Source: Deltaproteobacteria bacterium
GTDB taxonomy: Bacteria; Myxococcota; Kuafuiibacteriia; Kuafuiibacteriales; Kuafuiibacteriaceae
Direction: 5' to 3'
Length of the DNA: 64,000 bases
Assembly: GCA_040218735.1 (NCBI GenBank)
Contig: JAVJQW010000033.1
Span: forward strand, 192,001 to 256,000
The translations under genes were made by a program, and so were the position numbers. The notes under the pieces are model-generated. The model had not been told where the DNA came from, did not search any database, and saw only the letters and a list, made by a program, of their open reading frames with translations. This document shows positions 8,534 to 37,782 of this stretch, piece by piece (within the stretch, counting starts at the first letter, position 1; each line of letters starts with the position of its first letter).

Positions 8534-8566
8534 GAATCCCTCGTTTAGGAGCAATCGGACGCAGCG

Positions 8567-8935: not shown

Positions 8936-8944
8936 GGGCCGAAG

Positions 8945-10971: not shown

Positions 10972-10979
10972 GGATCGTG

Positions 10980-10988
10980 ATCCTAGCA
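10980..10988 (-). promoter_or_regulatory. Extended -10 element (TG-C-TAGGAT) for the selA operon
   Basis: TGCTAGGAT 8 nt upstream of the selA GTG; no SD between. Confidence 0.5.
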
Positions 10989-11054
10989 CAGGCCCGTAGA
11001 GGACGCAGAACCGCCCGAAGTGGCGGTCGGGTGACGGTTTGGCGTTGACTCTCA

Positions 11055-11078
11055 ATTGGTAACCTGAAAGTTACCAAT
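11055..11078. promoter_or_regulatory. Perfect inverted repeat, candidate operator
   Basis: ATTGGTAAC-ctgaaa-GTTACCAAT just upstream of the VOC gene ATG; TTGACT -35-like box at 11045-11050. Confidence 0.65.
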
Positions 11079-13497: not shown

Positions 13498-15075
13498 GTG
13501 TACCTGCTCCTCGAGGAGGTCGGGTCCGGTTCCAGCGGGACGGCTCACCTCGCCGTGCGCTCCGACGAGCGGACGGACGAGCTCTTCGTGGTCAAGCAGC
13601 TGAGGCCCGCCGTGGCGGCGGTCCCGGAGCATCTGAGCCGGTTCAAACACGAGGCGGCGATCGCGGTGATGGTCGATCACCCGAACGTGGTCGACGTCGT
13701 CGACGTGGGCCTCGCGGCCGAGCGGCCGTACATCGTGATGCGGTACGTCGAGGGCCCGACGGTCTCGATGCTGATGAACGCGCTGCTGCGTTCGAAGTCG
13801 CGGCTGTCCGTGGAGGCGGCGGTCGGGTTGGTGCGGGAGGCGTTGGCGGGGATCGAGGCGCTCCACACGGCGCGGCACCCGCGCACGGGAGAGCCGCTGG
13901 GGTTCGTGCACCGCGACCTCGCACCGAAGAACCTCATCGTCACGCGCGACGGGCGCCTGAAGCTGATCGACCTCGGGCTGGGGCGTTCGCGGCTCGGTGA
14001 GTGGCAGACGGAAGCCGGGCGCATCATGGGATCGATCGGCTACATGCCGCCCGAGCAGCTGCGGGGGGAGGCGGTGGATCAGCGTGCGGACCTGTGGTCA
14101 CTCGCGTGTGTCCTGTTCGAGCTGGTGACGCTGAGGCCCTACGTTCCGGGGCGCGGGCGTGAGCGGCTGCTCGCCACGTTGAAGACCGAGCCGCGCTCGA
14201 TGCGTGAAGTACGGCCGGACGTCCCGGTCGCGCTGGACGAGGTCGTGCTGCGCGCGCTCTCCACCACGCCGGCGGCGCGCTTCGAGTCGGCGTCGGCGCT
14301 GTCGCGCGCGCTCGAGCAGACCTGCGCCGCGCCTTCACCGAACGAGATCGCGCTGCACGTCGAAGGGGAGTTCGGTGAGGCGCTCGACGAACGGCGGCAC
14401 CGGCTGCGCGAGACCGCGCTGACGATCGTCGAGCCGCTGGAGATCACGGAGCACTATGAGCGCATCGCATCGCGCCCGGGTGCGGACGTGCCGATGTTCG
14501 GCACGTACGATGCGACGAAGGTGATCGCGGCGCCGACGCGCATCGACCGCCCGCCGTCGGTGCCCGAGCCGCGGCGAGCGCCGCGCCCGTCGGGGTATCG
14601 GTGGGGGGAGCTCGCGGCGATCACGGTCGTGGTCGCGATGATCGTGGCGGGTGGTGTGTACTTCGGGCTTCGACCTGCGCAGGAGCCGCCAGCGCAGATC
14701 GTGGCGCCGACACCGAACGTCGCGCCCGCCGCGGTGGCGACACCCAGCGCGCAGCCCCGGAAGGTCGAGGCGGCGCCGAACGCGGTGGCCGAGACGACGC
14801 CACCGAAGCCCCGGCGCGATCGCCCGAAGAAGGTGCGCCCGCGGACGCCCCGTCTCGACAAGAAGGCGCCGGAGGTTCGTGACGAGCCCGTGATCGCACC
14901 GCGGGCGCGTGCGGCGCGTCTGATGAAGCGGCTCCAGGGGATGCGCGCCGACGACGTCGCGGGCGCGGAGGCGCTGATCATGGAGCTGACGGCGCTGGAC
15001 CTGGTGCAGGATCCGGAGCGGTACACGGAGCGCCTCGGGCAGCTCGAGCGCCGCGCGAAGGCGTTGGCGCCGTAG
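13498..15075 (+). CDS. Membrane Ser/Thr protein kinase (module copy 1)
   Basis: GSGSSG, FVVKQL, HRDLAPKN, DLG, GYMPPEQ, ADLWSL; TM LAAITVVVAMIVAGGVYF; C-terminal helical domain; GTG start inferred from the paralog. Confidence 0.9.
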   Translation: MYLLLEEVGSGSSGTAHLAVRSDERTDELFVVKQLRPAVAAVPEHLSRFKHEAAIAVMVDHPNVVDVVDVGLAAERPYIVMRYVEGPTVSMLMNALLRSKSRLSVEAAVGLVREALAGIEALHTARHPRTGEPLGFVHRDLAPKNLIVTRDGRLKLIDLGLGRSRLGEWQTEAGRIMGSIGYMPPEQLRGEAVDQRADLWSLACVLFELVTLRPYVPGRGRERLLATLKTEPRSMREVRPDVPVALDEVVLRALSTTPAARFESASALSRALEQTCAAPSPNEIALHVEGEFGEALDERRHRLRETALTIVEPLEITEHYERIASRPGADVPMFGTYDATKVIAAPTRIDRPPSVPEPRRAPRPSGYRWGELAAITVVVAMIVAGGVYFGLRPAQEPPAQIVAPTPNVAPAAVATPSAQPRKVEAAPNAVAETTPPKPRRDRPKKVRPRTPRLDKKAPEVRDEPVIAPRARAARLMKRLQGMRADDVAGAEALIMELTALDLVQDPERYTERLGQLERRAKALAP

Positions 15076-15086
15076 TCGACGGCGAC

Positions 15087-15878
15087 TCAACACCCGGGCG
15101 GGCACATGCCTTCGCCGACGCAGGCGCAGTCCACGCCGGCGCCGCTCTGCGTGATGACCACGGCGGCGCCGACGGAGGCGGCGACCGCGGCGCCGACGCC
15201 GATCCACAACCACGGCGACGCCAAGACCGAGGACGCTTCCTGCAGACGCACCTCCAGCGTTTGTGACTCACCCGGCGCGAGCTGCAGGGCGCGGCGATCC
15301 GGTTCGTAGCCTTTGCGCTGAACCTCGATCTGCACCTCGCCTGGGTTCACCCAGAACGTCCCGTCCACGTCGCGGCGAACGGCGGGGACGAGGCGGACCG
15401 TGGCGTCGGCAGGGTCGGCGCGGATCGAGAGGCGGGAGAGGCGGACGAAGTGGGCGCGGTCGAGCGCTTCGTCGACCTGGAGCGCGATGCGATCCAGCGG
15501 CGCCCCCTCCTTGCCGCCGACGGCGCGGTGCACGAGTTTCTGCTCGTCGACGTCGATCAACAGCGTGCCCACGATCGGCGGCTGCACGGTGGTGTTCGCG
15601 ATGACGACGACGAGGTAACGCGCCGAGAAGTTCCTCGCTTCGCGGGCGAGGCACTCCGCTTCCAGCGCGCAGTCGCGCAGGCGATTGACGACGTCGCGGG
15701 GCGTGGTGAGGAACGTGGTTCGCGACATCACCGACACACCGGCGCGCGCTGCGACGGTGGCTTCGACGCGCTCGTGGACGCCGTCCGCCGTCACTTCGCC
15801 GAAGGACGCCTTCACCACCGGGAACACCGCGATCTGCGGCGCGGTCGCGGCGAGCAGCGCGAGCCAGGCGACGCTCAT
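15087..15878 (-). CDS. Exported PEGA-like protein with C-terminal TM and CACVGEGMCPPGC tail (module copy 1)
   Basis: Signal MSVAWLALLAATA; LSIRADPADATV...VQRKGYEP PEGA-like; SPWLWIGVGAAVAA TM; paralog at 34274-35062. Confidence 0.8.
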   Translation of the reverse strand: MSVAWLALLAATAPQIAVFPVVKASFGEVTADGVHERVEATVAARAGVSVMSRTTFLTTPRDVVNRLRDCALEAECLAREARNFSARYLVVVIANTTVQPPIVGTLLIDVDEQKLVHRAVGGKEGAPLDRIALQVDEALDRAHFVRLSRLSIRADPADATVRLVPAVRRDVDGTFWVNPGEVQIEVQRKGYEPDRRALQLAPGESQTLEVRLQEASSVLASPWLWIGVGAAVAASVGAAVVITQSGAGVDCACVGEGMCPPGC

Positions 15879-18529
15879 CGCGGCGTCACCGAGACCACGC
15901 GCTGACCCTCGCCCCCGATCATCACGAGGTCGTCCGTCACGGCGTACCCCGTGATGTACGTGAACGGCGTGGAGTCGCGTGGGCCCGCGCGCGGTTCGAC
16001 GGTCCCGTCGTCGTAGAGGAACGCCACCGCGTCGCCGAACCGAAGGGCCCCCAGCGGCGTGACCCACGACAGCGGCTTGGAGAAGTTGTGGAACCGCTGC
16101 TCCGCGGCGGACGGCTCGGGGAAGGGGCACAGCCCGAACGCCGCCTCCGCACAGAACTCCGGCTCGCGGCCGAGGACCCACGGGGAGACCGCCTGCGTGA
16201 ACGTCGTGCCCTCGATCTCCGTGACGCCGAGGACGACGCCGCGGTCCGCGCACGAGAGGTCGAGGGTCTTCGGGACGACTTCGCCGAACGGCTCGCCGAG
16301 GCGACGGTGCCAGAACCCTTCGACCGCGAGGGTTCGGTCGGCGCGCCACACGACGCGCCCCACGAGGTCGCGCCCCACGAGCCACGCCGTGCCGTCGCGC
16401 CCGGCGAGGTCGGTCCACTCCGGATCGACGACGCGCGGTTCGACCACCTGCGTGCTCGGGTCGTCCCACTCGACGTCGAGCTCGACGAACGCGCGGTCGA
16501 TCATCGCGAAGACCCGGCCGAAGCGATCGAGGAAGACGAACACCCCCGACGCCAGCGCGGCGCCCGCCACGAAGATCGCCGGGTCGTCGACCGGCGGCGC
16601 GACGCGATCGAGGACGCGCCCCTCGTCGATGTCGACGACGAACACGTCCACGCGATCGGGGAAGGTCGGCGGACACGGGATCCGCGTCGTGCCACGGCTC
16701 GTGCAGCGGTAGCGCGGCGCCTCGTGCGTGGTGACGACGAAGCGACTGGCGACGTCCGGGTCGGCGACGGCGAGGTCGGGGAGGGTGTTCTTGGACGGGG
16801 GGAAGCCGTCGACCTCGAAACGCGAGCGCAACACCACGCCGTCCTCGCGCGAGAACACCGCGGGCCCTCCGCTGAACGTCACGATGGAGCCGTCGTCGCG
16901 CGGCGCCATCGCGGCCATGGGGCCGTCGCGCCCTCCGCGTGTGCCGTAGATCTGGACGTACGTGTCGCTGTCCGGGCCGCGACGGAACAGAGAGCGCTCG
17001 GCGGTGACCGCGAGCTCGTAGTCCCCGCGCTCGAGGAGATCGAGCACCGGGCCGTGCACCTCCGGGAGCACCTCCGGCGTGGAGCCGTCCCACGGTCGTC
17101 CGATCCCGTTCGCGCGAAGGGTGACCTGGGTCCCCAGCACGTCGACCACCGTTTGGCCGAAGCCCCAGATGGTTCGGACACGTCCCGTCTGTGGATTGAC
17201 GGAGAGGGAGTGGCACCGCTCGAACGTCGTCGAGAGGGTCGCGACGGTGAGGGTCTCAGGGAGGTCCGCCGCGGTCTCGACGCCGGTCAGATCGATCGAC
17301 CACAACACCGAGCTCGCTCCCGTCGAGTTGAACCCGCGCGAGCAGAGGTTGAGCCGCCCGTCGGGCGCGAGTCCGTAGTCGTCGACGTAGTCGTGGGTGT
17401 AGAGGACGTCGTCGTGGAAGTACTGCCGCCCCTGCAGGCCGACGTGGCACGTCCACGCGGAGGTGGCGGCGTCCCGGACCACGAGCTCGCCGTGGTTCCC
17501 GACGATGACCACCGTGGGCGTCGTGATGCCGTTGGAGAACCGGAACGAGGACAGGTCACAGTCCGCCCCGAGCACCGTCTCCTCCGTACAGACGTACGTG
17601 TTGGGATCGCTCGGGCCGCAGCGGAAGATCTGTTTCGTCGCGTCGACATCGAGTGACGTGCCCGCGACGTAGAGCGCGCCGTCCGGACCCGCGAACATCG
17701 CTTGGACCAGCAGCGCGGGGAGGTCGACCCGGGGCTCGAGGCCACCTTCGTGCGTGACGACGCGGTAGATGGTGCCGTCGCCGGTCGGCTTCGGATCCGC
17801 CATCGCGACGAGGAGGCCGTCTTGGATCGGCGTCATCGCACGCACGTGGCCTTGGGCGTCGGTGAACTTTCGCTCCACGACCTGACCCGCCGCGTCGATC
17901 GTCACCGCGTAGGCCGGCGTCAGGCCGATGACGCGTCCGTCGTCGAAGAGGTAGCCCGAGCGGGTCGCGATGGACGAACCGGCCTCCTCCGAGACGATGT
18001 CGAAGCTGGCGACCTCGCGGATCGGTGCGTCGGGTGCACACGGGCAGGCGCCGGGCCACGTGACGAACACCCGCTTTGCAACTTCGCTTGCGAGGGTCGG
18101 GACGTTGACCACGGTCGGGCCTCCGACGTTCTCGTAGGCCTCCGCGGCGACGAACGCCGGGACGTGGCAGACGTCGCCGGGGCCGATGCGCTGAGGGGAC
18201 GAGACGGCTTCGAAGGTGCAGCGGCCGCACCCTCGAGTCGGTTCGGTCGTGGCTGTCGCGGCGGCGAGGGTTGCCTCGTCGAGGGGGTGACCGGCGCGGT
18301 CGACGAGCGCGCCGGCTTCGAAGCGCCAGACGAACAGCGTGCTCCCCTGTGGGAAGTCGATGCGGGTCGCGCGGCCGTCGACGAGGGTCTCGGCTTCGAG
18401 TCGGTCGCCGTCGAGCACGGCGATGACGGCGAGCTCTCCTGGGTCCAGCGCGACGGGGACGGCGTGCTGTTCACCCCGCGAGCAGGCCAAGACGAGCAGC
18501 AGCGCGAGCGTGATGGAGCGGCGTCCCAC
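15875..18529 (-). CDS. Large Cys-rich putative lipoprotein, beta-strand rich (module copy 1)
   Basis: Lipobox LLVLAC; GCGRCT...PGDVC motif; full-length similarity to 35059-37782. Confidence 0.8.
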   Translation of the reverse strand: MGRRSITLALLLVLACSRGEQHAVPVALDPGELAVIAVLDGDRLEAETLVDGRATRIDFPQGSTLFVWRFEAGALVDRAGHPLDEATLAAATATTEPTRGCGRCTFEAVSSPQRIGPGDVCHVPAFVAAEAYENVGGPTVVNVPTLASEVAKRVFVTWPGACPCAPDAPIREVASFDIVSEEAGSSIATRSGYLFDDGRVIGLTPAYAVTIDAAGQVVERKFTDAQGHVRAMTPIQDGLLVAMADPKPTGDGTIYRVVTHEGGLEPRVDLPALLVQAMFAGPDGALYVAGTSLDVDATKQIFRCGPSDPNTYVCTEETVLGADCDLSSFRFSNGITTPTVVIVGNHGELVVRDAATSAWTCHVGLQGRQYFHDDVLYTHDYVDDYGLAPDGRLNLCSRGFNSTGASSVLWSIDLTGVETAADLPETLTVATLSTTFERCHSLSVNPQTGRVRTIWGFGQTVVDVLGTQVTLRANGIGRPWDGSTPEVLPEVHGPVLDLLERGDYELAVTAERSLFRRGPDSDTYVQIYGTRGGRDGPMAAMAPRDDGSIVTFSGGPAVFSREDGVVLRSRFEVDGFPPSKNTLPDLAVADPDVASRFVVTTHEAPRYRCTSRGTTRIPCPPTFPDRVDVFVVDIDEGRVLDRVAPPVDDPAIFVAGAALASGVFVFLDRFGRVFAMIDRAFVELDVEWDDPSTQVVEPRVVDPEWTDLAGRDGTAWLVGRDLVGRVVWRADRTLAVEGFWHRRLGEPFGEVVPKTLDLSCADRGVVLGVTEIEGTTFTQAVSPWVLGREPEFCAEAAFGLCPFPEPSAAEQRFHNFSKPLSWVTPLGALRFGDAVAFLYDDGTVEPRAGPRDSTPFTYITGYAVTDDLVMIGGEGQRVVSVTPR

Positions 18530-18541
18530 CGAGGCGAGAGC

Positions 18542-19045
18542 TTAGCTGTTCGGCGGGTACTTGGCACTCAGCGCGGCGTACACGACCGGGGGCACGTAGC
18601 GTGAGAAGTCGCCGCCGTTCATCGCGATCTCCTTGACGAGGGAGCTGGAGATGTACACGTGCTCCGACTCGGTGAACATGAAGACGGTCTCCACGCTCGG
18701 CTCGAGGTCGCGGTTCGCGAGGCCGAGCTGGAACTCGTACTCGAAGTCGGTGAGGAGGCGCAGGCCGCGGACGAGGACACCGGCGCCCAGGCCGCGGCAG
18801 AAGTCGATCAGCAGCCCGGAGAACGACTGCACGTCGATGTTGTCGACGCTGCTGAGTGCGTCGCGAAGCATCTCGAGCCGTTCTTCGGTGGTGAAGAGGC
18901 TCTGCTTCGCGGGGTTCACTCCGATCGCGACGGTCACGCGATCGTACAGGCGCGCGGCGCGTTCGATGATCGCGGTGTGCCCGTACGTGACGGGGTCGAA
19001 CGAACCTGCATAGACGGCGTGTCGATAGTTGGGCGACGCCTTCAC
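18542..19045 (-). CDS. coaD: Phosphopantetheine adenylyltransferase
   Basis: AVYAGSFDPVTYGH, LVRGLRLLTDFEYE, ISSSLVKEIA. Confidence 0.95.
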   Translation of the reverse strand: MKASPNYRHAVYAGSFDPVTYGHTAIIERAARLYDRVTVAIGVNPAKQSLFTTEERLEMLRDALSSVDNIDVQSFSGLLIDFCRGLGAGVLVRGLRLLTDFEYEFQLGLANRDLEPSVETVFMFTESEHVYISSSLVKEIAMNGGDFSRYVPPVVYAALSAKYPPNS

Positions 19046-19115
19046 GATGCACGCACGCTGTCTCGCGCCGTTTTTGGATGTCAACGAAAGGAAGGTCTGA
19101 TACCTCTTTCGCGCC

Positions 19116-20231
<1,116 letters not shown>

Positions 20232-20232
<1 letters not shown>

Positions 20233-20642
20233 TGACGTTCGTCGACCGCATCGTGGTCGAGACGTCGGGGCGCTCGTTCGTAGACGTGACCTCGCGGGTC
20301 GCTCAGTGCGTCGCGTCGAGCGGCGTGCGTGACGGCCTCGCGAACGTGTTCATCCGCCACACCAGCGCGTCACTCGTCGTGCAGGAGAACGCGGACCCGG
20401 ACGTGCGCCGCGACCTGGAGCGCTTCCTCTCGGACCTGGTCCCCGACGGCGACCGCCGCTACCGCCACACCGCCGAGGGGCCCGACGACATGCCCTCGCA
20501 CGTGCGCGCGGTGCTGACCTCGACATCGGTCAACCTGCCGGTGCGAGACGGCCGATTGGCGCTGGGGACGTGGCAGGCGCTCTATCTGTGGGAGCACCGG
20601 CACGCGGCGCACCGGCGCACGCTGGACGTGACGATCGTGTAG
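20232..20642 (+). CDS. yjbQ: UPF0047/YjbQ family protein
   Basis: HTSASLVVQENADPDV, YRHTAEGPDDMPSH, LGTWQ; TGATG overlap with prfB. Confidence 0.9.
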
Positions 20643-20681
20643 ACCTTGCAGCCGACGCGGTGTCCGGGTAGCGATCGGACC

Positions 20682-22088
20682 ATGGACGTCGGTGCTCTGA
20701 AGGCGCTGCTGAGCGCATCGGGTTACGACGTCCGGTTCCGTCGCGACGCGTGGGTGGAGTGTCTGCTCCTCGCGTCGGGCGAGACCTTCGTCGGACGAGG
20801 CGTGGACGACGACGCGGCGTTGCTCGCGGCGGTCGACGCCGCGTTCCCGTCTTCGTTGGCGAAGGCGTTGTTGGTGCAGGCGTTGGGCGCGCCCGTGGCT
20901 TCTGCGCCGCGGCCCGCTCCGCCGAAGCCGGCGGTCGGGCACCGCGCTGCGGAGCGCTCCGCGCCGCCGCTGGTGGACAAGACGTCGAATCGCCCCGCGC
21001 GTAACGATCATCAGCGCGCCATCGACGAGCTGCACGTGCTGAACGAGCGCGTCCGGGACTCGCGCGAGGAGCTGGGGTTGTGCACTTCGGAGCGCCAGCG
21101 CTTGGCGATCCTCGCGTGGATCTGCGAGGCGCGCGCGCACACCGACGTGTTCCCGGGCGACGAAAAGATCCGCGACGAGGTCGCGCAGGTTTCGCGGCAG
21201 CTCACCGAGATCGGCAAGGCGTTCTGGCCGGGGTCGGTGACCGCGCTGCAGCTCCAGATGCAGCCGAAGGATCTCCCGCGGCACCTGCTTGGCGGGACGG
21301 CGGCGACGTGGACGAGCGCTGCGGAGCTCGCCGAGCGTGCGCTGCACAGCATGGAGCACGCGGACGAGCGCCGCGGGCACGACGAACACGGCTGGGCCGA
21401 CTACGCGTACACCCAGCCGCCGCCGTCCGACGCGGACGCTACGCTCGCAGAGCTCGTCGCGGAGTTGGAGCGCTACGGCGGTTCGATCGAGCGCTACGCG
21501 GAGCCCCGCGACGCTTCGCAGAAGCCGGACGAGGAGCGATTCCTCCGCTGGGTCCGAACGCTGCGCTGGCTACGCGGGACCCACGTGGATCCGAACCAGT
21601 GGGCGCGCGCCACGGGTCGGCTTCGCTGGTGGGCCGGGCGCCGCGATCCCAACCTGACGCCGCACGGCAAGGAGCTGGACGGCGGCTTCGTCCCCACACG
21701 GCCCTGGGCCGAGCTGCTCCACCGCCCCGGCGCGCCGTCGCCGACGAACGGCCCGCCCGCGAAGCTGGTGACGCAGGCGCAGGCGCGCTGCGCCGGGAAG
21801 CGCATCGTGATCGTCAGCCACCGAAGGGACCCGGAGCTTCAGCGTCGCGTCGAGGGTGCGTTGGCGGGGGCATCGATCGACTGGGCGGTGTCCGAGCCGA
21901 AGCGCCTGGAGGCGCTCGCGCAGACGATCGGTGACTACGATCTGGTCCTCGGCGCGTTGGGGCTTCAAGCACCGCGCCCCGACTGCGCGCTCGCGCGCGC
22001 CTGCCGCGTCGCGGACACCCCGTACCTGCGCGTGAACCGCGGCCGCCCGGTCGCGTGCCTGCGGGCGATCGCGCGCGTCGGCGCCTGA
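20682..22088 (+). CDS. Hypothetical protein with DUF2325-like C-terminal domain
   Basis: Long ORF with good codon bias; C-terminus KRIVIVSH...YDLVL...ACRVADTPYLRV resembles DUF2325 (by eye). Confidence 0.6.
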   Translation: MDVGALKALLSASGYDVRFRRDAWVECLLLASGETFVGRGVDDDAALLAAVDAAFPSSLAKALLVQALGAPVASAPRPAPPKPAVGHRAAERSAPPLVDKTSNRPARNDHQRAIDELHVLNERVRDSREELGLCTSERQRLAILAWICEARAHTDVFPGDEKIRDEVAQVSRQLTEIGKAFWPGSVTALQLQMQPKDLPRHLLGGTAATWTSAAELAERALHSMEHADERRGHDEHGWADYAYTQPPPSDADATLAELVAELERYGGSIERYAEPRDASQKPDEERFLRWVRTLRWLRGTHVDPNQWARATGRLRWWAGRRDPNLTPHGKELDGGFVPTRPWAELLHRPGAPSPTNGPPAKLVTQAQARCAGKRIVIVSHRRDPELQRRVEGALAGASIDWAVSEPKRLEALAQTIGDYDLVLGALGLQAPRPDCALARACRVADTPYLRVNRGRPVACLRAIARVGA

Positions 22089-22156
22089 GCCGGAATCGAA
22101 CCGGTCCCACGTCTCGCGGGTTGGCGCCCGAGCGGGGAACTTGTTAGCGCACGCGT

Positions 22157-24853: not shown

Positions 24854-24917
24854 AGGGCCGTAGAGCCCTCGGGAAGCGAGGCCGTGAATGGCACGATTGA
24901 GGGATCGGTTCGGGGGG

Positions 24918-25400: not shown

Positions 25401-25403
25401 CGC

Positions 25404-28102: not shown

Positions 28103-28194
28103 CTCGCCGGCACCCTAGCGCCGACCCGCCCACCGGTCGAATTCGGCCGGCCCCGCTTCCACGAACCTACGCACCCAACTCGACGAGCTCTGCC

Positions 28195-29709: not shown

Positions 29710-29735
29710 CGCGGCGGATTGTGCGTCAGATCGAG

Positions 29736-30764
29736 CTACTCCGGGAACACGACGGCCAAACGCTCTCGCATTCGAGGGTCCGCGTCTTCGAGCGCGACGA
29801 GGTCCGCGTCCAGCGATGCCGCGCGCCGCTGCGCAAACGGCACCAGCCGATACGACACCACGCCCGACGCACCGAGCTCCACCACGAACACCCCGCCCAA
29901 CCGCACCGGCCACCCGACACGCTCCAGCGCGGGGCCGTTCAGGTTACCGAGGCTGTAGAGGCACAGCCGATCCCCGAACCGCTCCAGCGGCATCAACACG
30001 TGCGGGTGGTGGCCGACGATCACGTCGAAGCCCGACTCGGCGAGGCGCCCCGCGAGAGCGCGCGTCGACGCGCGCGGGAAGTGCCGGAACTCGTACTCCC
30101 AGTGCGGCGTCGCCACGAGCACATCGACCGAAGCGCGAAGCTCGGCGAAGTCGAACGCCTCCACGTCTCGCGTACGAACGATGTTCGGCCAGCCGGGTAG
30201 CCGCTGCTCCGAGTTCAGCCACTCGGACCAGGCTACGACGCCGATGCGTTTCCCCGCGCGCTCCACGATCCGATACGGCGCGGCCTCCGCGTCCGCGAGC
30301 GCGCCGACCGCGACCGCCCCGTGTTTCTCGATGCGCTCCACCGACCCCACCAAGCCGTCCACGCCCTGGTCGGCGATGTGATTGTTCGCGATCGACAGCA
30401 CCGCCTTGTCCGCCGGGACGCCGAGCCGCTCCAAGAAACCGAACAGGAACGCCTCCGCCATCGCGAAGTGCCCGACGTAACGCGCGTACGGCCGCAGCTC
30501 CTCGAACATCACCGGCGCTTCGCAGTTCGCGAACACCAGATCCGCGCTGCGCAAGGCATCTTGCACGACGTCGGGCACCTGGGGGATGCGGTCGTTCTGC
30601 ATGCACATCAAGTCCCCGAGGAACGCGAGCGTCAGCTCGACGGGTTCGTCGCGGATCCGCCCCGACCGCGGCAGCGGAACGAGGTCGGTCGGGTTCTGGG
30701 TCGAAGGGTTGAAGTAGTCGAGGAGCCAGCGGAACCCGTAGTACCAGGGGTAGGGCGAGCTCAT
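29736..30764 (-). CDS. CapA (PGA_cap) family metallophosphoesterase
   Basis: LAFLGDLM, ANCEAP, LSIANNHIADQG, PHWEYEF, IVGHHPHV, YSLGN. Confidence 0.88.
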   Translation of the reverse strand: MSSPYPWYYGFRWLLDYFNPSTQNPTDLVPLPRSGRIRDEPVELTLAFLGDLMCMQNDRIPQVPDVVQDALRSADLVFANCEAPVMFEELRPYARYVGHFAMAEAFLFGFLERLGVPADKAVLSIANNHIADQGVDGLVGSVERIEKHGAVAVGALADAEAAPYRIVERAGKRIGVVAWSEWLNSEQRLPGWPNIVRTRDVEAFDFAELRASVDVLVATPHWEYEFRHFPRASTRALAGRLAESGFDVIVGHHPHVLMPLERFGDRLCLYSLGNLNGPALERVGWPVRLGGVFVVELGASGVVSYRLVPFAQRRAASLDADLVALEDADPRMRERLAVVFPE

Positions 30765-32572
30765 CGCCGTCGCCTTCTCCTGCGCTTCTTCGGCTTCGCT
30801 TCCTCTTCCATCGCCTTCATCGCCTCCGCCTCCAGGGCCTCCTGGGCGATCAGCTCCGGCGTCTTCTCCAGCGTGATGTCGAGGTCGATCGGCTTGCCGC
30901 GCTCCGGCGTCAACGTCTGCTCGAACGGGACGTAGCCGAGCTTCTTCACCGCGATCTTCGTCTCCTTGTTCGTCCGCACGGACATCGTCGCGGGCGTCAG
31001 CGCGACGTTGTTCCCGTCCATCCACAGCTCCGCGCCGACCGGCTCCGACTTCACCGCGAGGTTCACGACCGCCCCCGGGAACACCAGGTTCATCGTGCGC
31101 TTCGCGCCGGCCTTGATCGCGACGGTGCTCGTCACCGGCGTCTCACCCTCGATGTTCAGCTCGATGTAATGCGTGACCACCGACTCCAGGTTCTCGATCG
31201 TGAGCGGCGTGCGCTTGCCCGTCTCTTCGTCGTCGAGGGTCACCAGCGCGCCCGGCGGGATCGACTCGATCGTGATCGTCCCGCCCGCGTTGCGGCCGAC
31301 GAACGCCTCACGGAGCTTGCGCGTCACGAGCCGCTGATTGCGATCCGACCACAGCGTGAACACCGCCATCGCGATCACCAGCGCCGCGACCGCCGAGATC
31401 ACGATCTTGCCGAGCGGCAGTGAGCGGTCGTCCAGCGGCGGCGGCGATCCGACCTGCGCGGTCTGGGCGCGTGCCTGCGCCGGTGACATCCGTGGCAACG
31501 AGGTGTCGGCCGGAGGCCCGCCGTACATCGGCGCCGGCATGTCCGTCGGCGGACCGCCGTACATCGCGGCCACGATCGGTTCGTCGGCGGCGACCGGCTC
31601 GGGGTGCGTGGGCGCCGGCCGACTCGAAGACGCGTCGACGAAGCCCGCGGGGCGCATCATCGTGTCCACGGGGGGGCCGCCCGTGCCGGAGAGCTCACGT
31701 CGCGCGGCGGTGTCGGCCTGGCGGTCGACGCCCGCCTCCGAGCCGAGCACCATCGCGAGCAACGTCGCGAGCCGCGTCGAGGAGTACGTGGGGTCGCCGC
31801 CGTAGAGGATGCGCGCGAGCTCGTCGCGGAAGACGGCCGCGGACGCGTGGCGCTGATTCGGATCTGCGAGCAACGCGCGGTCGATGGTCATCGCGAGCGC
31901 GGGCGGGACGTGGGGCGCCGCCTGCACCAGCGGCTCCGCGCGGTTGGGATCGGGTTCGCGGCCCGCGAGCATCGTCCACACCAGGCGCGCGACGGCGTAA
32001 ACGTCCGTGCGCGCGTCGACGATCCCGCCGTTCAGCTCGGGGGCGATCGTGCGCGGTGAAACCGGGGGCGCGGGGCGGGTCGACGACTGCGCGTAGAAGA
32101 AGTTGCTCAACCGCACGCGACCGTCGTGTCCGATGACGACGGCGTCGGCGTTCACATCGCAGTGCACGACGCGGAGGGGGCCCCCCTCCGGGGTGCGCGC
32201 CTGGTGGACCGCTTCGAGCCCGGCGAGGAGCTCCATCGCGATGAACGTCGCGGCGCTCGGATCGATCGCGACGCCCGAGGCGCGCGACTTCTCCATCAGC
32301 ACCGAGAGCGGGCGTCCGGCGATCGCCGTCTGCACGACGTAGACGCCGTCGGCGTCCTGGTCGATGTCGACGACGCGCGCGACGACGTGGTGATCGATGT
32401 GCGCCGCGATCGTCGCGCCTTCGACCAGCGACGACTCCGCGTCGCGGCCGAGCCCGCGCAGCAGCTCGACGTCGCGCACGACGCCGCCGGCCACTTCGTA
32501 CGCGCGAAACATTCGCGCGACCTCGGTTTGGCGAAGCTCTTCGAAGACGTGGTATCGGCCGACGCGCTGCAA
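30761..32572 (-). CDS. Degenerate Ser/Thr kinase with TM helix and two PEGA domains
   Basis: VGRYHV, VHCDVN, APEL, TDVYAV; TM SAVAALVIAMAVFTLW; PEGA ESIPPGALVTLDD and SEPVGAELWMDG. Confidence 0.82.
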   Translation of the reverse strand: MQRVGRYHVFEELRQTEVARMFRAYEVAGGVVRDVELLRGLGRDAESSLVEGATIAAHIDHHVVARVVDIDQDADGVYVVQTAIAGRPLSVLMEKSRASGVAIDPSAATFIAMELLAGLEAVHQARTPEGGPLRVVHCDVNADAVVIGHDGRVRLSNFFYAQSSTRPAPPVSPRTIAPELNGGIVDARTDVYAVARLVWTMLAGREPDPNRAEPLVQAAPHVPPALAMTIDRALLADPNQRHASAAVFRDELARILYGGDPTYSSTRLATLLAMVLGSEAGVDRQADTAARRELSGTGGPPVDTMMRPAGFVDASSSRPAPTHPEPVAADEPIVAAMYGGPPTDMPAPMYGGPPADTSLPRMSPAQARAQTAQVGSPPPLDDRSLPLGKIVISAVAALVIAMAVFTLWSDRNQRLVTRKLREAFVGRNAGGTITIESIPPGALVTLDDEETGKRTPLTIENLESVVTHYIELNIEGETPVTSTVAIKAGAKRTMNLVFPGAVVNLAVKSEPVGAELWMDGNNVALTPATMSVRTNKETKIAVKKLGYVPFEQTLTPERGKPIDLDITLEKTPELIAQEALEAEAMKAMEEEAKPKKRRRRRRR

Positions 32573-32685
32573 GGCGCCCGAATCCTAACCGGCCCCGGGG
32601 ATTGGCGCCAAAACGCCCGGGAGGGTGGGGGCGGGCGCCCCCGAGGGGGTGGTCTTGGTCGGCGCGGCAGGGCAAGTTGCTGCGC

Positions 32686-34269
32686 GTGTTCCTCCTGCTC
32701 GAAGAGGTCGGGTCGGGCGCCGCCGGCACCGCCCACCTCGCGGTCCGCTCCGACGTGCGGACCGACGAGCTCTTCGTGGTCAAGCGGCTGCGCCCGGAGG
32801 TCGCGGCGCAGCCGGAGCACCTCCAGCGCTTCTCCCACGAGGCCCGGATCGCGGTCATGGTCGACCACCCGAACGTCGTCCAGGTCGTCGACGTCGTCAT
32901 GGGCGCGCAGTGTCCGTACCTCGTCATGCGCTACGTCGAGGGCCCGACGCTGGCGGCGCTGCTGCGCGAGCTGCGTTTGTCACAGCAACGGCTCTCGGTA
33001 CCGGCCGCCGTCGGCCTCGTCCGCGACGCGCTCGCGGGGCTGCACGCGCTCCACGAGGCGCGGCACCCCGAGACGGGGGAGTCGATCGGCTTCGTGCACC
33101 GCGACCTGTCACCTCGCAACCTGATCGCGACGCGCGACGGGACGGTCTGCCTGATCGACCTGGGCCTCGGGCGCTCGCGGCTCGGGGAGTGGCAGACGGA
33201 GGCCGGCCGCATCATGGGGTCGCTCGGGTACATGCCGCCGGAGCAGATCCGCGGCGTCGCCGTCGATCACCGCGCTGACCTGTGGTCCATCGCGTCGGTG
33301 TTGTTCGAGCTCCTGACGCTCGAACAGTTCGTCCCGGGGCGCGGTCGTCAGCGTGCGCTCAACACACTCGAGACGAGCCCGCGCTCGCTGCGGAGCCTTC
33401 GCGACGACGTCCCCGAAGGGCTCGACGAAGTCGTGATGCGCGCGCTCTCGATGACACCCGCGGCGCGCTTCGAGTCGGCGGCGTCGTTCGCGCGCGCGCT
33501 CGCGGAGACCGTGCCCGAGCGTGCGCCCGCCGAAGTCACTTCGGTCGTCGACTTCCACTTCGGCGAAGAGCTCGACGAACGCGCCCGTCGCCTCCGCGAG
33601 GTCGCGCTGACCGTCGTCGCGCCGAGCCCGATCGCCGAGAGCTACGAGCGCATCGCTTCGCGGCCCTCCGCGGAGGACCCCACGGAGTTCGGGGTCTTCG
33701 ACGCGACGCAGGTGCGGCCCGCGCCTACGCGCGTGGAACGGCCCAGCACCCCCTCCGAAGTGCTGCAGCCGTCGGTCGTGGCTCCGCGTCGGTCGACGCC
33801 GTGGGCGGCGCTTGCCGTGCTCGCCGCGATCTTCAGCGTCGCGGCGGTGGTGTACCTGTGGAGTCGGGCTCCGGCCGAGCCGGCGCCGTCGGTGCCGCGG
33901 ACCTTGGTCGAGGTGAAGCCGCGTGCGCGCGGGGTGCCGAGCGTCGTCGCGCCCGAACCTTCGCGACGGGATGTCGCGCGCGCCACGACGTCGAGGCAAA
34001 CACGTCCGCCGAGCGCGAAGGCGCCTCCGCCCATCGCACCGGTCGACGCCGGCGTCGCGCCCGCGGTGGAGCCCCCCGCGCCCCCCTCACGGCGTGAGCG
34101 CGTCGCGCGGTTGTCGAAGCGACTCCAGTCGTTGCGCGCCGAACACGGCGACGCGGCCGAGCGCCTGATCATGCAGCTGACGGCGCTCGATCTGGTGACC
34201 GACGAAGTCCGTCACGCGGAGCAGCTCGCGCGCATCGAGCGCGAGGTCGCTGCGCTCGACGGGCCCTGA
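32686..34269 (+). CDS. Membrane Ser/Thr protein kinase (module copy 2)
   Basis: GSGAAG, FVVKRL, HRDLSPRN, DLG, GYMPPEQ; TM; paralog of 13498-15075. Confidence 0.9.
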   Translation: MFLLLEEVGSGAAGTAHLAVRSDVRTDELFVVKRLRPEVAAQPEHLQRFSHEARIAVMVDHPNVVQVVDVVMGAQCPYLVMRYVEGPTLAALLRELRLSQQRLSVPAAVGLVRDALAGLHALHEARHPETGESIGFVHRDLSPRNLIATRDGTVCLIDLGLGRSRLGEWQTEAGRIMGSLGYMPPEQIRGVAVDHRADLWSIASVLFELLTLEQFVPGRGRQRALNTLETSPRSLRSLRDDVPEGLDEVVMRALSMTPAARFESAASFARALAETVPERAPAEVTSVVDFHFGEELDERARRLREVALTVVAPSPIAESYERIASRPSAEDPTEFGVFDATQVRPAPTRVERPSTPSEVLQPSVVAPRRSTPWAALAVLAAIFSVAAVVYLWSRAPAEPAPSVPRTLVEVKPRARGVPSVVAPEPSRRDVARATTSRQTRPPSAKAPPPIAPVDAGVAPAVEPPAPPSRRERVARLSKRLQSLRAEHGDAAERLIMQLTALDLVTDEVRHAEQLARIEREVAALDGP

Positions 34270-34273
34270 ATCT

Positions 34274-35062
34274 TCAGCACCCGGGCGGGCAGTCGGCGGG
34301 TCCGACGCAGGCGCACTCGGCGGGGTCCTGTCGGCTCACGAAGACCGCGGCGCCGACGCCCGCGGCGACCGCGACGCCGACGCCGATCCACAGCCACGGC
34401 GACGTGAGCACGGACGCGTCGCGGCTCAGCTGGATCTCCACGGACTGATCACCACCCGGTGCGGCCACGAGGGTTCGCTGCTCCGGTTCGAAGCCTTCGC
34501 GTCGGACGTCGAGGGTCACGTCGCCGGGTGCGACCCAGAACGTGCCGTCGGCGTCCCGTCGTGCGGCGGTGGTGACTTGGATGTCGGCGTCCTCGGGCTC
34601 CGCGCGCACCGTCAGCCGAGCGAGGCGTTCGAAGCCCGCGGCGTCGAGCGCGTCGTCCACCTGTTTGTCGACGCGTCTCAGCGGCGGGAGCTCGCCGTCG
34701 CCGAGGCTGCGGTGAACGAGCTTCTGTTCGTCGACGTCGATCAGCAGCGTGCCGACGAGCGGCGGATCCACCGTGGTGTTCGCGATGACCACGACCAGGT
34801 AACGCGCAGTGAACGCCCGCGCGACGCGCGCGAGGCAGGCCGCCTCGATCGCGCAGTCCCCGAGGGCCCGGATCGTCTCGCGCGGTGTGGTCAGGAACTG
34901 CGACCGTGACACGACCTCGATCCCCGCGCGCCGCGTGGCGATCGCTTCGACGTGTGCGTGTACGGCGTCGGCGCTGATGTCCCCCGCCTCGGTCTTCACG
35001 ACCGGGAACACCGCGAGCTCGGAGGCCGAAGCGACGAGCAGCGTGAAGACGGCGGTGTTCAC
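34274..35062 (-). CDS. Exported PEGA-like protein with C-terminal TM and CACVGPADCPPGC tail (module copy 2)
   Basis: Paralog of 15087-15878 (shared ARYLVVVIANTTVxPPxVGTLLIDVDEQKLVHR). Confidence 0.8.
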   Translation of the reverse strand: MNTAVFTLLVASASELAVFPVVKTEAGDISADAVHAHVEAIATRRAGIEVVSRSQFLTTPRETIRALGDCAIEAACLARVARAFTARYLVVVIANTTVDPPLVGTLLIDVDEQKLVHRSLGDGELPPLRRVDKQVDDALDAAGFERLARLTVRAEPEDADIQVTTAARRDADGTFWVAPGDVTLDVRREGFEPEQRTLVAAPGGDQSVEIQLSRDASVLTSPWLWIGVGVAVAAGVGAAVFVSRQDPAECACVGPADCPPGC

Positions 35063-37782
35063 CGGGGCTCCACCGCGATGATGCGTTCACCTTCGCCACC
35101 GATCACGGCGAAGTCCCCGGAGACCGCGTGCCCCCCGACGTAGGAGAATGGCGCGAAGTGGCGCGGTCCACCGCGCGGTTCGATCGTGCCGTCGTCGTAG
35201 CGATAGATCAGCGTCCCGTCCGAGAACCGCAGCGCGCCGGTGGGGCGGATCCAGTTCAGGCGTTTCGAGAAGCCGCGGGCTTCGGCTTCGGTGCTGTCGA
35301 TAGCGATGGGGCCGACGCGGAGCGAGGGCCCGCCGCCTTCGAGGCGGGAGGGGCGAACGGCGAGGCGCACCGATCCGCTGAGCGTCGTCCCGATGCCCAT
35401 CACGACGGCGCGGTCGGCGCACCAGGCGTCCACGGTGAACGGGACGACGCGGGTGCCGTCGTCGGGGGTCCAGGTCGCGGCGATGCGGTCGTCCCAGAAC
35501 CCCTCGACCACGAGCTTTCGCTCCGGGCGCCAGGCGACGCGACCCACGAGCCCGTCGCCGACCAGCCACGCGACGCCGTCCGTTCCGTCGATCGCTTCGA
35601 ACGTCTCGGGGCTGGGTTGGAGCTCGATGACCGAAGTGCTCGGGTCGTCCCACTCGACGGTCAGCAGCTCGAGCGAGGATCCGATCAGCGAAAACACGTT
35701 GCCGCGTGAATCGAGGAGCACGAAGACATCGTCCGCGAGCGCCGCGCCGCCGATGAACATCGACGGGTTCGCGATCGGCGGGATGTACTCGTCGACGACG
35801 CGCCCTTGTTCGAGATCGATGTCGAGGATCGATACACGATACGGCGCCGAGGGGGGGAGGCACGGCGTCCGCCACGTGCCGCGGATCCGGCAGCGCCACA
35901 GCAGCGCGCGGTGCGTCGCGACGAGCGCTCGGTTCGGCGCGCCCGGGGACACGAGGGCGAGGTCCGCGTGGCTGTCCGGGGTCGGTGGGTAGCCGGCGAT
36001 GTCGAGGGTCTCGCGGGTGATGTCGCCGCGCCGGGTGTAGCGCTCTGCCCGAGCGCCGAAGGCGACGATCGTCCCGGGCTCGGTCGGTGCGAGCGCCGTC
36101 ATCGGTCCGCGGCGCGCGGTGCCGTTGGCGTAGACCGGCGCGAAGGTCGTCATCCCCGGTGCGCGTCGGTACATGTCGCGCGACGCGGTGACCGCGAGCG
36201 CCCAGTCGTCGGACGTGTAGAGATCGAGCACCGGATCCGCCGCCTCGTCGAACAGCTCGGGCGCGTCCCCAACCCACGGCTGCCCGAGGCCTTCATGCCG
36301 TGCGGTCTCGGCGCCGGCGACCGTATCGATCGCGAAGTCACCGAAGCCCCACAGCGAACGTGCGCGCTCGCCCTCGGCGGAGATCGACGTGCACAGCGCA
36401 TCGATCGCCTTCGCGGTCTCGAACGCTGTCAGCGGCGAAGTGAAGTCTGCCGTCGATCGAACGCCGGCGAGGCTCGTCGACCAGAGCACACCGGTGACGT
36501 GCCTCGAGGAGGCCCCTGTGGGGCGGGTGCCCGTCGAGCAGACGTACAACATGCCGTCCGACGTCAGCGCGACACCATCCACGACGTCGTGCGCGTACGC
36601 GTTGTCGTTGATGAGGAAGTTGAAGATCGAGAGCCCGGGGTGGCACTCCCAGCGGCCGTCGGCGGTGTTGCGCGCGTAGAGCTGACCGCGGTCGCCGATG
36701 AAGAACGAGGTGCCGACGGTGCTCGTCACCGCGACCCCGCGGGTGAAGTCGAACGTCGTCTCGTCGCAGGTCCCCGAGCCGGAGGGTTGCTCCGTGCATT
36801 CGTACTGCCCGGCGGCCGCCGTGGTGCACCGGTAGAAGCCGTGTCGCGGCGCGCGCTCCGGTTGGACGACGCCGGCCAGGTACACGTCGCCGCTCGCGTC
36901 CGCGAGGAGGGCGGGGCCGCCCAAGCTCGGGAGACCGTCCGCCTGTGTCACGACGAGGTCCTTCGCGACGTGAACGTAAGTGGCCTCCGCGGTCGCGCGG
37001 TCGGGGTCGTCGAGCGCGAGCAGCAACCCGTCGTGCACCCGGGCCGACGCGAGGACCTGCCCGCCGAGCTCGGGTACGGCGGCGGAGCGGACCGTGCCGT
37101 CGGCCGTGATGGCGGCGACGTGGCCCGGGGTGATCGCGAGCGCGGTGCCGTCGTCGAACAGGTGATGAACGGAGGCAGCGATGCGGGGCTCGTCCGCGTC
37201 GATCTGCACGATCTCGAGATCCTGCGCGGTCTTCAGCGGAGGATCCTCACAGCCGCACGCGCCGGGGGTGCGGACGAAGACACGGGCCGCCGTTTCGCGC
37301 ACGACGTCTGCGTCCTCGATCGTCTTCGGCCCGTCGTCGTTCTCGAAGACTTCGACGTCGGCGAACGGCGGGACCGCGCAGACGTCACCGGGCGACAGGC
37401 GCTGCGGCGAGGTCAACGCGTCGTAGGTGCAGCGACCGCAGCCACCGACGGACGACGTCGAGACCTCCAGCGCGGCGAGCGCGGCGTCGTCGAGCGGGCG
37501 ACCGCTCGCGTCGACGAAAGAGCCGGCCGCGAACCTCCACACGACCATCTTGGCGCCGGGCGGCCACGCGATGCGTACCGAGGTCTGCGCGTCGATGCGG
37601 GCGACTTCGAGCGTGCCGTCGTCGACCACGGCGACGACCAAGACCTCCCCCGGCTCGGGTTCGAGGGGGACGCGGTGTTGAACGTCGGAGCACGCGGCGG
37701 CGACGAACGCGAAGAGCGCGATGGACGAACGGTAGAGCACCGGCGCGTTGGCGAGCGTACCGGACCGATTCGTGGCGGTCAC
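35059..37782 (-). CDS. Large Cys-rich putative lipoprotein (module copy 2)
   Basis: Lipobox FVAAAC; paralog of 15875-18529; true start may lie slightly downstream of 37782. Confidence 0.8.
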   Translation of the reverse strand: MTATNRSGTLANAPVLYRSSIALFAFVAAACSDVQHRVPLEPEPGEVLVVAVVDDGTLEVARIDAQTSVRIAWPPGAKMVVWRFAAGSFVDASGRPLDDAALAALEVSTSSVGGCGRCTYDALTSPQRLSPGDVCAVPPFADVEVFENDDGPKTIEDADVVRETAARVFVRTPGACGCEDPPLKTAQDLEIVQIDADEPRIAASVHHLFDDGTALAITPGHVAAITADGTVRSAAVPELGGQVLASARVHDGLLLALDDPDRATAEATYVHVAKDLVVTQADGLPSLGGPALLADASGDVYLAGVVQPERAPRHGFYRCTTAAAGQYECTEQPSGSGTCDETTFDFTRGVAVTSTVGTSFFIGDRGQLYARNTADGRWECHPGLSIFNFLINDNAYAHDVVDGVALTSDGMLYVCSTGTRPTGASSRHVTGVLWSTSLAGVRSTADFTSPLTAFETAKAIDALCTSISAEGERARSLWGFGDFAIDTVAGAETARHEGLGQPWVGDAPELFDEAADPVLDLYTSDDWALAVTASRDMYRRAPGMTTFAPVYANGTARRGPMTALAPTEPGTIVAFGARAERYTRRGDITRETLDIAGYPPTPDSHADLALVSPGAPNRALVATHRALLWRCRIRGTWRTPCLPPSAPYRVSILDIDLEQGRVVDEYIPPIANPSMFIGGAALADDVFVLLDSRGNVFSLIGSSLELLTVEWDDPSTSVIELQPSPETFEAIDGTDGVAWLVGDGLVGRVAWRPERKLVVEGFWDDRIAATWTPDDGTRVVPFTVDAWCADRAVVMGIGTTLSGSVRLAVRPSRLEGGGPSLRVGPIAIDSTEAEARGFSKRLNWIRPTGALRFSDGTLIYRYDDGTIEPRGGPRHFAPFSYVGGHAVSGDFAVIGGEGERIIAVEPR

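Follow-up and report, generated by a model that had tools for sequence, protein, structure and literature searches.

We analyzed a 64,000-nucleotide window (positions 192,001–256,000 of contig C52, JAVJQW010000033.1; G+C content ~70%) from the 11.6-Mb, 70-contig assembly of a Deltaproteobacteria bacterium of the phylum Myxococcota, in which a set of three genes, encoding a membrane Ser/Thr kinase, a small membrane protein, and a large lipoprotein, occurs twice. An interpretation made from the letters alone (the sequence-only reading) had placed this architecture at 13498–18529 and 32686–37782, and all six open reading frames (ORFs) were found there. In module 1, the gene for kinase 1 (13498..15075, + strand, 525 aa) converges on the genes for the small protein (15087..15878, − strand, 263 aa) and lipoprotein 1 (15875..18529, − strand, 884 aa). 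In module 2, the gene for kinase 2 (32686..34269, + strand, 527 aa, architecture as in kinase 1) converges in the same way on those for the second small protein (34274..35062, − strand, 262 aa) and lipoprotein 2 (35059..37782, − strand, 907 aa counted from the first GTG). We refer to the small PEGA-like protein with a C-terminal cysteine (Cys) tail as PEGAtail. The convergent gaps of 11 and 4 bp and the coupling of the minus-strand pair agree with what had been claimed, the lipoprotein and PEGAtail genes sharing a 4-nt start–stop overlap in both modules. These assignments were based on translation together with Pfam for the kinases (also BLASTP and motifs for kinase 2), on the PEGAtail family alignment (A2, 58 sequences) and the lipoprotein family alignment (A1), on AlphaFold2 (AF2) models and Foldseek for PEGAtail 1 and lipoprotein 1 (also VIA-align for the latter), on BLASTP for PEGAtail 2 and lipoprotein 2, and on Pfam for PEGAtail 2.

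The two copies lie downstream of different housekeeping genes, as proposed; Pfam analysis of the neighboring ORFs identified the same two. Lipoprotein 1 is preceded on the same strand, at a distance of 12 bp, by a coaD-type cytidylyltransferase gene (18542..19231, − strand; CTP_transf_like, 1.8e-24). Its domain begins at residue 73 of the 229-aa ORF, and the true start is probably near 19030 rather than at the ORF start at 19231. Lipoprotein 2 is directly preceded, with a 4-nt overlap and again on the same strand, by mfd (37779..41378, − strand), the transcription-repair coupling factor gene, with DEAD, UvrB_inter, CarD_TRCF_RID, and TRCF domains. The divergent neighbor of kinase 1 is an ABC1 kinase gene and that of kinase 2 a gene encoding a kinase–PEGA fusion.

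The modules are paralogous along all three genes. Full-length BLASTP alignments gave 57% identity for the kinases (549 columns), 59% for the PEGAtails (263 columns), and 41% for the lipoproteins (910 columns), as the sequence-only reading had supposed, and the shared motifs that it quoted were seen in these alignments. It had also proposed an old duplication kept by selection, of which the first part stands: by the Nei–Gojobori method, the proportions of synonymous (pS) and nonsynonymous (pN) differences between the modules are 0.41–0.48 and 0.28–0.39, respectively, and the former marks the duplication as old. With synonymous sites nearly saturated at a third-position G+C content of ~0.9, the dN/dS ratios (0.48, 0.59, and 0.73) cannot be relied on as a sign of selection. 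Retention is better shown by intact orthologs in a related assembly, one of lipoprotein 1 (88% identical) and one of the module-2 PEGAtail (86%), both of which sit on contigs recorded at 56,815 nt. The possibility that the repeat is an assembly chimera of two related organisms, which had been named in advance as a refuting case, is excluded because a 19,351-nt contig from a different study (run X2) is collinear with positions 15001–33255 of the window (223 differing letters, zero gaps) and so connects module 1 with kinase 2. No RNA data set carrying the sequence was listed among 21 runs.

The kinases of the window can be assigned to the Hanks-type Ser/Thr kinases by both domain score and catalytic residues, and are predicted to be active. 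Pkinase (PF00069) scored 115.1 bits in kinase 1 and 105.7 bits in kinase 2 (cut-off 31.7), and the catalytic motifs are present (Gly-rich loop GSGSSGT, VVK, HRDLAPKN or HRDLSPRN, DLG, and PPE), with K33, D140, N145, D158, and E186 invariant in 25/25 aligned kinases. The catalytic loop reads HRD[LIV][SA]P[KR]N, with Ser/Ala at +2 and Lys/Arg at +4 instead of HRDxKPxN. The best NCBIfam match, the PknB/Stk1 model, was below threshold (199.8 bits vs. a cut-off of 450). The kinase belongs to the Hanks-type family as an ordinary member. Kinase 1 consists of the kinase domain (residues 4–262), a juxtamembrane region, a single transmembrane helix (~365–387), and ~135 further residues that comprise a Pro-rich, Lys/Arg-containing linker and a C-terminal helical hairpin of ~60 aa. 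Among the kinases, the Pro-rich spacer is ~65–90 residues long and the hairpin ends in ..L..LER.L.ALE.

PEGAtail had no match to a curated family in Pfam and NCBIfam scans. PEGAtail 1 fell below the Pfam thresholds of PEGA (PF08308; 13.9 vs. 20.8 bits) and CarboxypepD_reg (PF13620; 23.0 vs. 32.3 bits), and PEGAtail 2 below that of CarboxypepD_reg (29.1 vs. 32.3 bits); at E ≤ 0.01, each of the two models matched 31/58 family members. The order of elements in PEGAtail 1 is a signal peptide, a TolB-N/LpoB-like domain with invariant Cys70 and Cys76, a PEGA-like beta-sandwich, the motif SPWLW, a transmembrane helix (222–244), and the C-terminal DCACVGEGMCPPGC; the tail of PEGAtail 2 is ECACVGPADCPPGC. 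Multiple alignment A2 revealed the same layout throughout the family: an N-terminal signal-like helix, an AVxPV strand, the Cys70/Cys76 domain, the sandwich, SPWLW, a hydrophobic helix, Arg/Lys, and a CxCV(4-7)C(P)xC end. Tail cysteines C253 and C259 (numbering of PEGAtail 1) are nearly invariant, and many members have Ser/Thr between the transmembrane helix and the first tail Cys.

The AF2 model of PEGAtail 1 (predicted local distance difference test, pLDDT, 89.9; predicted template modeling score, pTM, 0.78) places strands at 148–211 and has low confidence in the tail. Foldseek matched the N-terminal domain to TolB (7mx5_B, E 5.6e-7), LpoB (4q6l, E 3.6e-5, TMt 0.55), and PelC (5t10, E 4e-5), and also to FlgT and GNA1162. 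The second domain matched carboxypeptidase regulatory domains (2nsm, 1qmu, 3mn8, and 6hif_Y), two of which were also recovered by a profile search of the PDB (6hif_Y, 7.5e-4; 2nsm, 5e-3); it is predicted to have a transthyretin-like beta-sandwich fold. The small protein is bitopic, with one transmembrane helix and a PEGA-like domain, in line with the PEGA-like membrane protein of the sequence-only reading. The signal peptide and the basic residues that follow the transmembrane helix suggest that the Cys tail is cytoplasmic. A strict search of the genome for a transmembrane helix followed by a CxC..C C-terminal tail returned only five ORFs; since all five are PEGAtail members, the tail is family-specific and not a general sorting tag.

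An exhaustive HMMER search detected 730 cluster representatives at E ≤ 1e-3, of which 215 passed E ≤ 1e-10; most are 250–290 aa long and match end to end. At E ≤ 1e-8, matches to A2 were present in at least 235 of 301 genomes of the phylum (including the unpublished G195), largely as tail-less proteins, and two distant loci that we inspected (L047 and L058) encode ~600-aa proteins that match PEGA, DUF3280, and TolB_N-like models and lack a kinase domain. Claims about the pair are restricted here to family f1, and distant A2 matches were not counted as pairs. A search for fusions among longer proteins matching A2 returned 16 proteins with multi-PEGA or other architectures, none of which contained PF00069, a blank that counts as weak evidence.

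Variants of the tail were observed at several related loci. In locus L031 (G016:C161), the product of a mini ORF (~10560–10871, + strand) directly 3′ of a lipoprotein-family gene has a signal peptide followed by a short acidic/Pro linker, a transmembrane helix, and the tail CFCVGSSATDCGSCN, and lacks the TolB-N and PEGA domains; no kinase was found within the 15-kb locus. This suggests that the transmembrane and Cys-tail element is able to stand alone beside a lipoprotein. PEGAtails with a reduced two-Cys tail (..ICIAxDPxxC..) often lie between two kinases (L093, L105, L110, L111, and L112), one of which ends in a conserved ..RREAE.ARRLTAGG.LI; they may represent a distinct subtype with two kinases per partner. 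At another PEGAtail paralog (L091, G000:C29), the gene directly upstream (7838–10423, − strand) encodes a ~860-aa, CxxCH-rich multihaem-cytochrome-like protein.

The lipoproteins have a signal peptide that ends in a lipobox of the type [LVI][ASTVI][GAS]C (LLVLAC(16)S in lipoprotein 1 and VAAAC(31)S in lipoprotein 2), and lipidation is predicted. The lipobox Cys is invariant in 19/19 aligned members of A1 and is one of nine invariant cysteines (C16, C101, C104, C121, C162, C304, C314, C396, and C439). The N-terminal domain (residues ~20–170) is Cys-rich and carries a conserved GCGRC..PQ..PGDxC (GCGRC..PGDVC in lipoprotein 1). Neither Pfam (repeat families included) nor NCBIfam gave any match, and a sequence search of the PDB using profile A1 gave no meaningful hit (best E 0.66). 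The AF2 model of lipoprotein 1 (pLDDT 83.7, pTM 0.84) is all-beta from residue ~173 to 884. Best Foldseek matches were the tandem seven-bladed propellers of Aip1 (1nr0), Utp21, Elp2, and GH74 (E 7.6e-16 to 1e-13, TM-score 0.26–0.41), and VIA-align against single propellers gave Z of 21.5–22.5 and a root-mean-square deviation of 3.1–3.9 over 270–296 residues. The beta-propeller-like lipoprotein of the sequence-only reading is therefore, in the predicted structure, a double propeller spanning residues ~173–884. A word-indexed homolog search with the lipoprotein returned four proteins and missed the 41% identical paralog in the window itself, and little weight is placed on the distribution that it gave.

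To which extent these genes belong together was examined by gene neighborhood. The genome contains 15 full-length PEGAtail genes (A2 profile search), of which 13 have a kinase domain within 2.5 kb and nine within 1 kb; one more has a kinase at 3.6 kb. At 20,000 random 790-bp spots in the same genome, a kinase lies within 1, 2, and 3 kb with frequencies of 0.07, 0.11, and 0.15, respectively. The adjacent kinases are also closely related: when the 252 kinase ORFs of the genome were ranked by score to kinase 1, they occupied ranks 1, 2, 5, 6, 7, 8, 9, 10, 20, 26, and 28, thus 8 of the 10 closest, and nearly all have the layout of transmembrane helix, Pro-rich linker, and C-terminal hairpin. Kinase-domain and PEGAtail distances were strongly correlated among 14 pairs of the genome (Mantel r 0.72, 0/20,000 permutations as high; r 0.55 once the module 1–module 2 cell was removed). 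Because the pairs are paralogs within one genome, this correlation does not come from species phylogeny, and it implies that the pair duplicated and diverged as a unit. Among loci taken from the best-scoring PEGAtail matches in other genomes of the same family, a kinase was found within ~6 kb in 15/20 and 19/19, i.e., 34/39, mostly immediately next to the PEGAtail gene and, as in the window, often convergent with it. A related-locus search seeded with PEGAtail 1 found only a same-genus contig. Adjacency, codivergence, and recurrence together link kinase and PEGAtail strongly and point to a real, much-copied module (~15 per genome here). The sequence-only reading had treated the trio as the unit; the conserved unit is instead this pair.

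The lipoprotein behaves differently. Profile A1 detected five full-length lipoprotein-family genes in the genome, with a kinase domain at 1.5, 1.5, 3.2, 0.08, and 2.3 kb; one of them (C67) has a hairpin kinase (rank 11) as its divergent neighbor, with no PEGAtail. In a sister genus (G010), 18 lipoprotein-family genes lie in 17 loci; the family there comprises at least 18 full-length genes (L013–L029 and L098), all of which carry a lipobox together with a motif of the GCGRC type. A trio in the geometry of the window recurs in a same-genus locus (L030; 60%, 61%, and 46% identity for kinase, PEGAtail, and lipoprotein) and in another genus (G010, L016; 34%, 30%, and 23% by tblastn), and a rearranged one is present in L022. 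L030 corresponds in position to module 1: coaD, prfB, and ABC1 in its flanks are 89%, 93%, and 72% identical, respectively, yet its trio is only 60–65% (kinase), 61% (PEGAtail), and 46% (lipoprotein) identical to that of module 1. Judging from these alignments, either the trio, and most of all the lipoprotein, evolves much faster than its flanks or paralogs have replaced each other. Co-occurrence of the three genes, which the sequence-only reading had offered as a check on the system, was thus borne out for kinase and PEGAtail, whereas the lipoprotein is unlinked in most loci of the sister genus. It is facultative and comes from a separate expanded family, and is not an obligate member of a trio.

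Considering all of the above, the reading that we favor, with modest confidence, is a signaling pair of kinase and coreceptor, with the lipoprotein as an optional input module. Its core would be a membrane Hanks-type Ser/Thr kinase and a dedicated bitopic partner, PEGAtail. The kinase would place its catalytic domain in the cytoplasm and, after one transmembrane helix and the Pro-rich spacer, its helical hairpin outside the cytoplasm; PEGAtail would expose the TolB-N/LpoB-like domain and PEGA sandwich to the periplasm and, after one transmembrane helix, a short Cys knuckle to the cytoplasm. The pair has been duplicated many times as a unit within this family of Myxococcota-like bacteria. In the copies of the window, the PEGAtail gene is translationally coupled to that of the double-propeller lipoprotein, which might be an exchangeable subunit that contacts the pair and recognizes a ligand or some envelope component. 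A signal would then pass from the lipoprotein to the PEGAtail ectodomain and/or the kinase hairpin in the periplasm and alter kinase activity in the cytoplasm. The hairpin might meet the PEGAtail ectodomain in the periplasm, the Pro-rich spacer could carry it far from the inner membrane, and the Cys tail may act on the kinase side of the membrane. The sequences establish the gene architecture, the intact catalytic motifs, and the adjacency, codivergence, and recurrence of the pair, and the folds are predicted. A role in trans-envelope sensing is plausible; for such a system we infer that the proteins bind, how they are oriented in the membrane, in which direction the signal runs, that the lipoprotein sits in the outer membrane, that the tail has a metal or redox chemistry, and that each copy sees a different ligand.

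Complex prediction, suggested earlier as a check and run here for full-length kinase (with alignment A3) and PEGAtail (with A2), lends weak support to a contact between them. The interface score ipSAE was 0.50, 0.43, and 0.44 (median 0.44; best of three controls 0.00), with partner pLDDT ≥ 86 and contacts agreeing by ≥ 80% between runs. In the benchmark, the mark was reached by 58/80 solved complexes and 2/110 mismatched pairs; scores of ≤ 0.60 within the passing range comprise only 7 of those 80 solved complexes and both passing mismatches.

Several observations weigh against the signaling pair. The complex score falls in a range where predictions, unless already likely on other grounds, are wrong more often than right, and the run gave no interface. 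One of the 15 PEGAtail genes of the genome has no kinase on its 32.9-kb contig, and 5/39 loci elsewhere have none within ~6 kb; these 39 loci were not a random sample, and background kinase density was measured only in the genome of the window. The lipoprotein is not an obligate associate: a family gene occurs in 0/20 and 1/19 of the PEGAtail loci elsewhere, the single one being partial, and, as characterized by kinase, PEGAtail, and lipoprotein profiles in the fetched flanks, only 4/17 lipoprotein loci of the sister genus have a kinase and 2/17 a PEGAtail. Other PEGAtail genes of the genome follow different genes, such as a multihaem-cytochrome-like ORF. In the window, the kinase gene runs toward the other two and is hence not cotranscribed with them, and dN/dS is uninformative for the two copies.

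Besides the signaling pair, other explanations should be considered. The one that survives best, and that we still regard as unlikely, is that PEGAtail and the lipoprotein are envelope machinery (peptidoglycan, polysaccharide export, or outer-membrane tethering) that is monitored or regulated by the kinase, with no sensing of an external ligand. The Foldseek relatives of the PEGAtail N-terminal domain (TolB-N, the LpoB C-domain, PelC, FlgT, and GNA1162) are all periplasmic envelope-machinery proteins, and the Atlas feature neighbors of PEGAtail are CsgG/LpoB+PEGA architectures (0.92–0.94), but a common fold does not establish a common function. The position of both lipoprotein–PEGAtail pairs behind same-strand housekeeping genes, with 12-bp and overlapping spacing, also fits such a role, whereas no envelope-synthesis genes were identified beside the modules by Pfam on the window ORFs. 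Diversified sensing is a better fit than a housekeeping machine to 15 paralogous pairs per genome, and likewise to a lipoprotein that is only 46% identical between congeners in a conserved context (coaD 89%, prfB 93%).

It is less probable still that PEGAtail serves the kinase as a substrate or inhibitor and not as a coreceptor, its juxtamembrane region or Cys tail being phosphorylated by or docking on the kinase, and the lipoprotein being unrelated operon cargo. Strict coupling of kinase and PEGAtail, the Ser/Thr residues before the first tail Cys in many members, and the dispensability of the lipoprotein for the pair in most loci would all be accounted for; the conserved outside parts (~200 PEGAtail residues with Cys70/Cys76, and the kinase hairpin) would be left unexplained, as would the location near kinases of all five lipoprotein paralogs of the genome.

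We consider it improbable to a greater degree that the trio is a fast-evolving module for conflict or for the recognition of kin, prey, or phage at the cell surface, with the lipoprotein as a polymorphic receptor and a response set off by the kinase pair. The 46% identity of the lipoprotein against 72–93% for the flanks between congeners fits this idea but could reflect paralog replacement instead of fast evolution. The growth of the lipoprotein family to 18 genes in the sister genus and the CHAT, caspase-like, and trypsin-like genes between the modules also speak for it; yet Pfam and NCBIfam scans gave no toxin, immunity, or mobile-element signature in the trio, and the neighboring protease genes did not recur as partners in the examined parts of L030 and L016. 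Finally, that the repeat is an artefact of chimeric assembly, or the linkage a matter of chance in a kinase-rich genome, can be set aside almost entirely: the assembly is fragmented into 70 contigs with an estimated contamination of 4.65% and the genome has 252 kinase ORFs, but both modules lie on one contig here, the X2 contig reaches from module 1 into kinase 2, the related assembly has orthologs of both modules on contigs recorded at equal length, and adjacency is far above random expectation and repeated in most loci elsewhere.

Upstream of module 1 are the minus-strand genes for selenocysteine synthase (selA, 9550–11070), a TetR-family regulator (11535–12137), and the ABC1 atypical kinase (12109–13398), all identified by Pfam. 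Pfam also identified, between the modules, genes for a CHAT-domain protein (22157–24853, + strand), a trypsin-like peptidase (25404–26531, − strand), a caspase-like Peptidase_C14 + DUF4476 protein (26528–28102, − strand), and the kinase with two C-terminal PEGA domains that is divergent to kinase 2 (30761–32572, − strand); compared with A2, this last protein has only the PEGA sandwich in common (hhalign probability 15%). The ORFs at 20646–22088, 24888–25400, and 28195–29913 had no Pfam match. The prfB gene (release factor RF2; 19100–20232, + strand) is seemingly split over two frames, its PCRF/RF-1 ORF starting at profile position 62, and a CTTTGAC motif lies at 19185–19191, which is compatible with the programmed +1 frameshift classically known from RF2.

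Myxobacteria-like organisms have hundreds of Hanks-type kinases, and the input is obscure for almost all of them. A kinase subfamily that comes with its own structurally defined membrane partner offers a concrete way to study signal input, with ~15 testable receptor pairs per genome, natural cognate and noncognate controls, and, in two cases, a candidate ligand-binding lipoprotein; the family-specific, putatively cytoplasmic Cys tail is an unexplained element that is easily mutated. If binding proves true, a multi-component architecture would be added to bacterial Ser/Thr-kinase signaling; to our knowledge, such multi-component signaling has so far been described mainly for histidine kinases. 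A more speculative extension, which we hold to be doubtful, is a new class of multi-component Ser/Thr-kinase receptor in which a TonB-like Pro-rich spacer and hairpin dock on a bitopic coreceptor, a cytoplasmic CxC..C knuckle, whose 2–4 Cys could bind a metal or act as a redox switch, perhaps shared by a dimer, gates the kinase domain, and interchangeable periplasmic or outer-membrane modules give ~15 receptors their input specificity. Among the papers listed in full-text literature searches (subscription literature and supplements lying outside their reach), none described the pair of kinase and PEGAtail, its Cys tail, or the trio, which, like the lack of a curated Pfam or NCBIfam family for PEGAtail and the lipoprotein, is consistent with the view of the sequence-only reading that this is not a named system.

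Individual parts do resemble known proteins. The MYXO-CTERM motif, which is found on many unrelated proteins, consists of a Cys-containing motif followed by a transmembrane helix and a C-terminal basic cluster. PEGAtail similarly combines a C-terminal hydrophobic helix with conserved cysteines in Myxococcota proteins, but in reversed order, with the transmembrane helix first and the Cys motif last, and the tail is limited to one family in the genome; NCBIfam sorting-domain models remained below their cut-offs on PEGAtail (CoaP_CTERM 16.6 vs. 35, GVDTG_CTERM 15.1 vs. 29). The PEGAtail N-terminal domain shares its fold with LpoB, TolB-N, and PelC (Foldseek) at 12–16% sequence identity. Unlike these proteins, PEGAtail has a C-terminal transmembrane anchor, a PEGA sandwich, a Cys tail, and a kinase partner instead of a penicillin-binding protein or an exporter, and an LpoB-type lipobox was not found, with no Cys in the first 69 residues of either PEGAtail.

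The lipoprotein shares a two-propeller architecture over ~700 residues with Aip1 (1nr0), Utp21 (4nsx), Elp2 (4xfv), and GH74 (6p2n), but at 9–12% identity, and the TM-scores of 0.26–0.41 indicate that the relative orientation of the propellers differs; it also adds a lipid anchor, a Cys-rich N-terminal domain, and eight invariant cysteines. Twin propellers can bind ligands at their interface, and Bacteroides hybrid two-component systems carry periplasmic twin-propeller sensor domains. Reg_prop appeared only as an Atlas lead for the lipoprotein (0.79–0.82), and neither GH74 nor Reg_prop had a Pfam match.

PknB (with PASTA repeats) and PknD (with a beta-propeller) are membrane Hanks-type kinases with fused extracytoplasmic sensor domains. 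The kinases described here are like them in having a cytoplasmic Pkinase domain, a single transmembrane helix, and an extracytoplasmic part, and, as in PknD, a propeller would serve as the sensor. They differ in that their own outside part is a Pro-rich spacer plus a ~60-aa hairpin, with the globular domains on two separate polypeptides; PASTA and NHL had no matches in Pfam/NCBIfam scans of the six proteins, and the same scans gave no matches to the RcsF, IgaA, NlpE, and LpqB families. Lipoprotein-assisted envelope signaling to histidine kinases is known from RcsF–IgaA–RcsC/D, NlpE–CpxA, and LpqB–MtrB. The system proposed here would resemble these only in its logic, from a lipoprotein to an inner-membrane adaptor to a membrane kinase, the kinase being of the Hanks type and not a histidine kinase.

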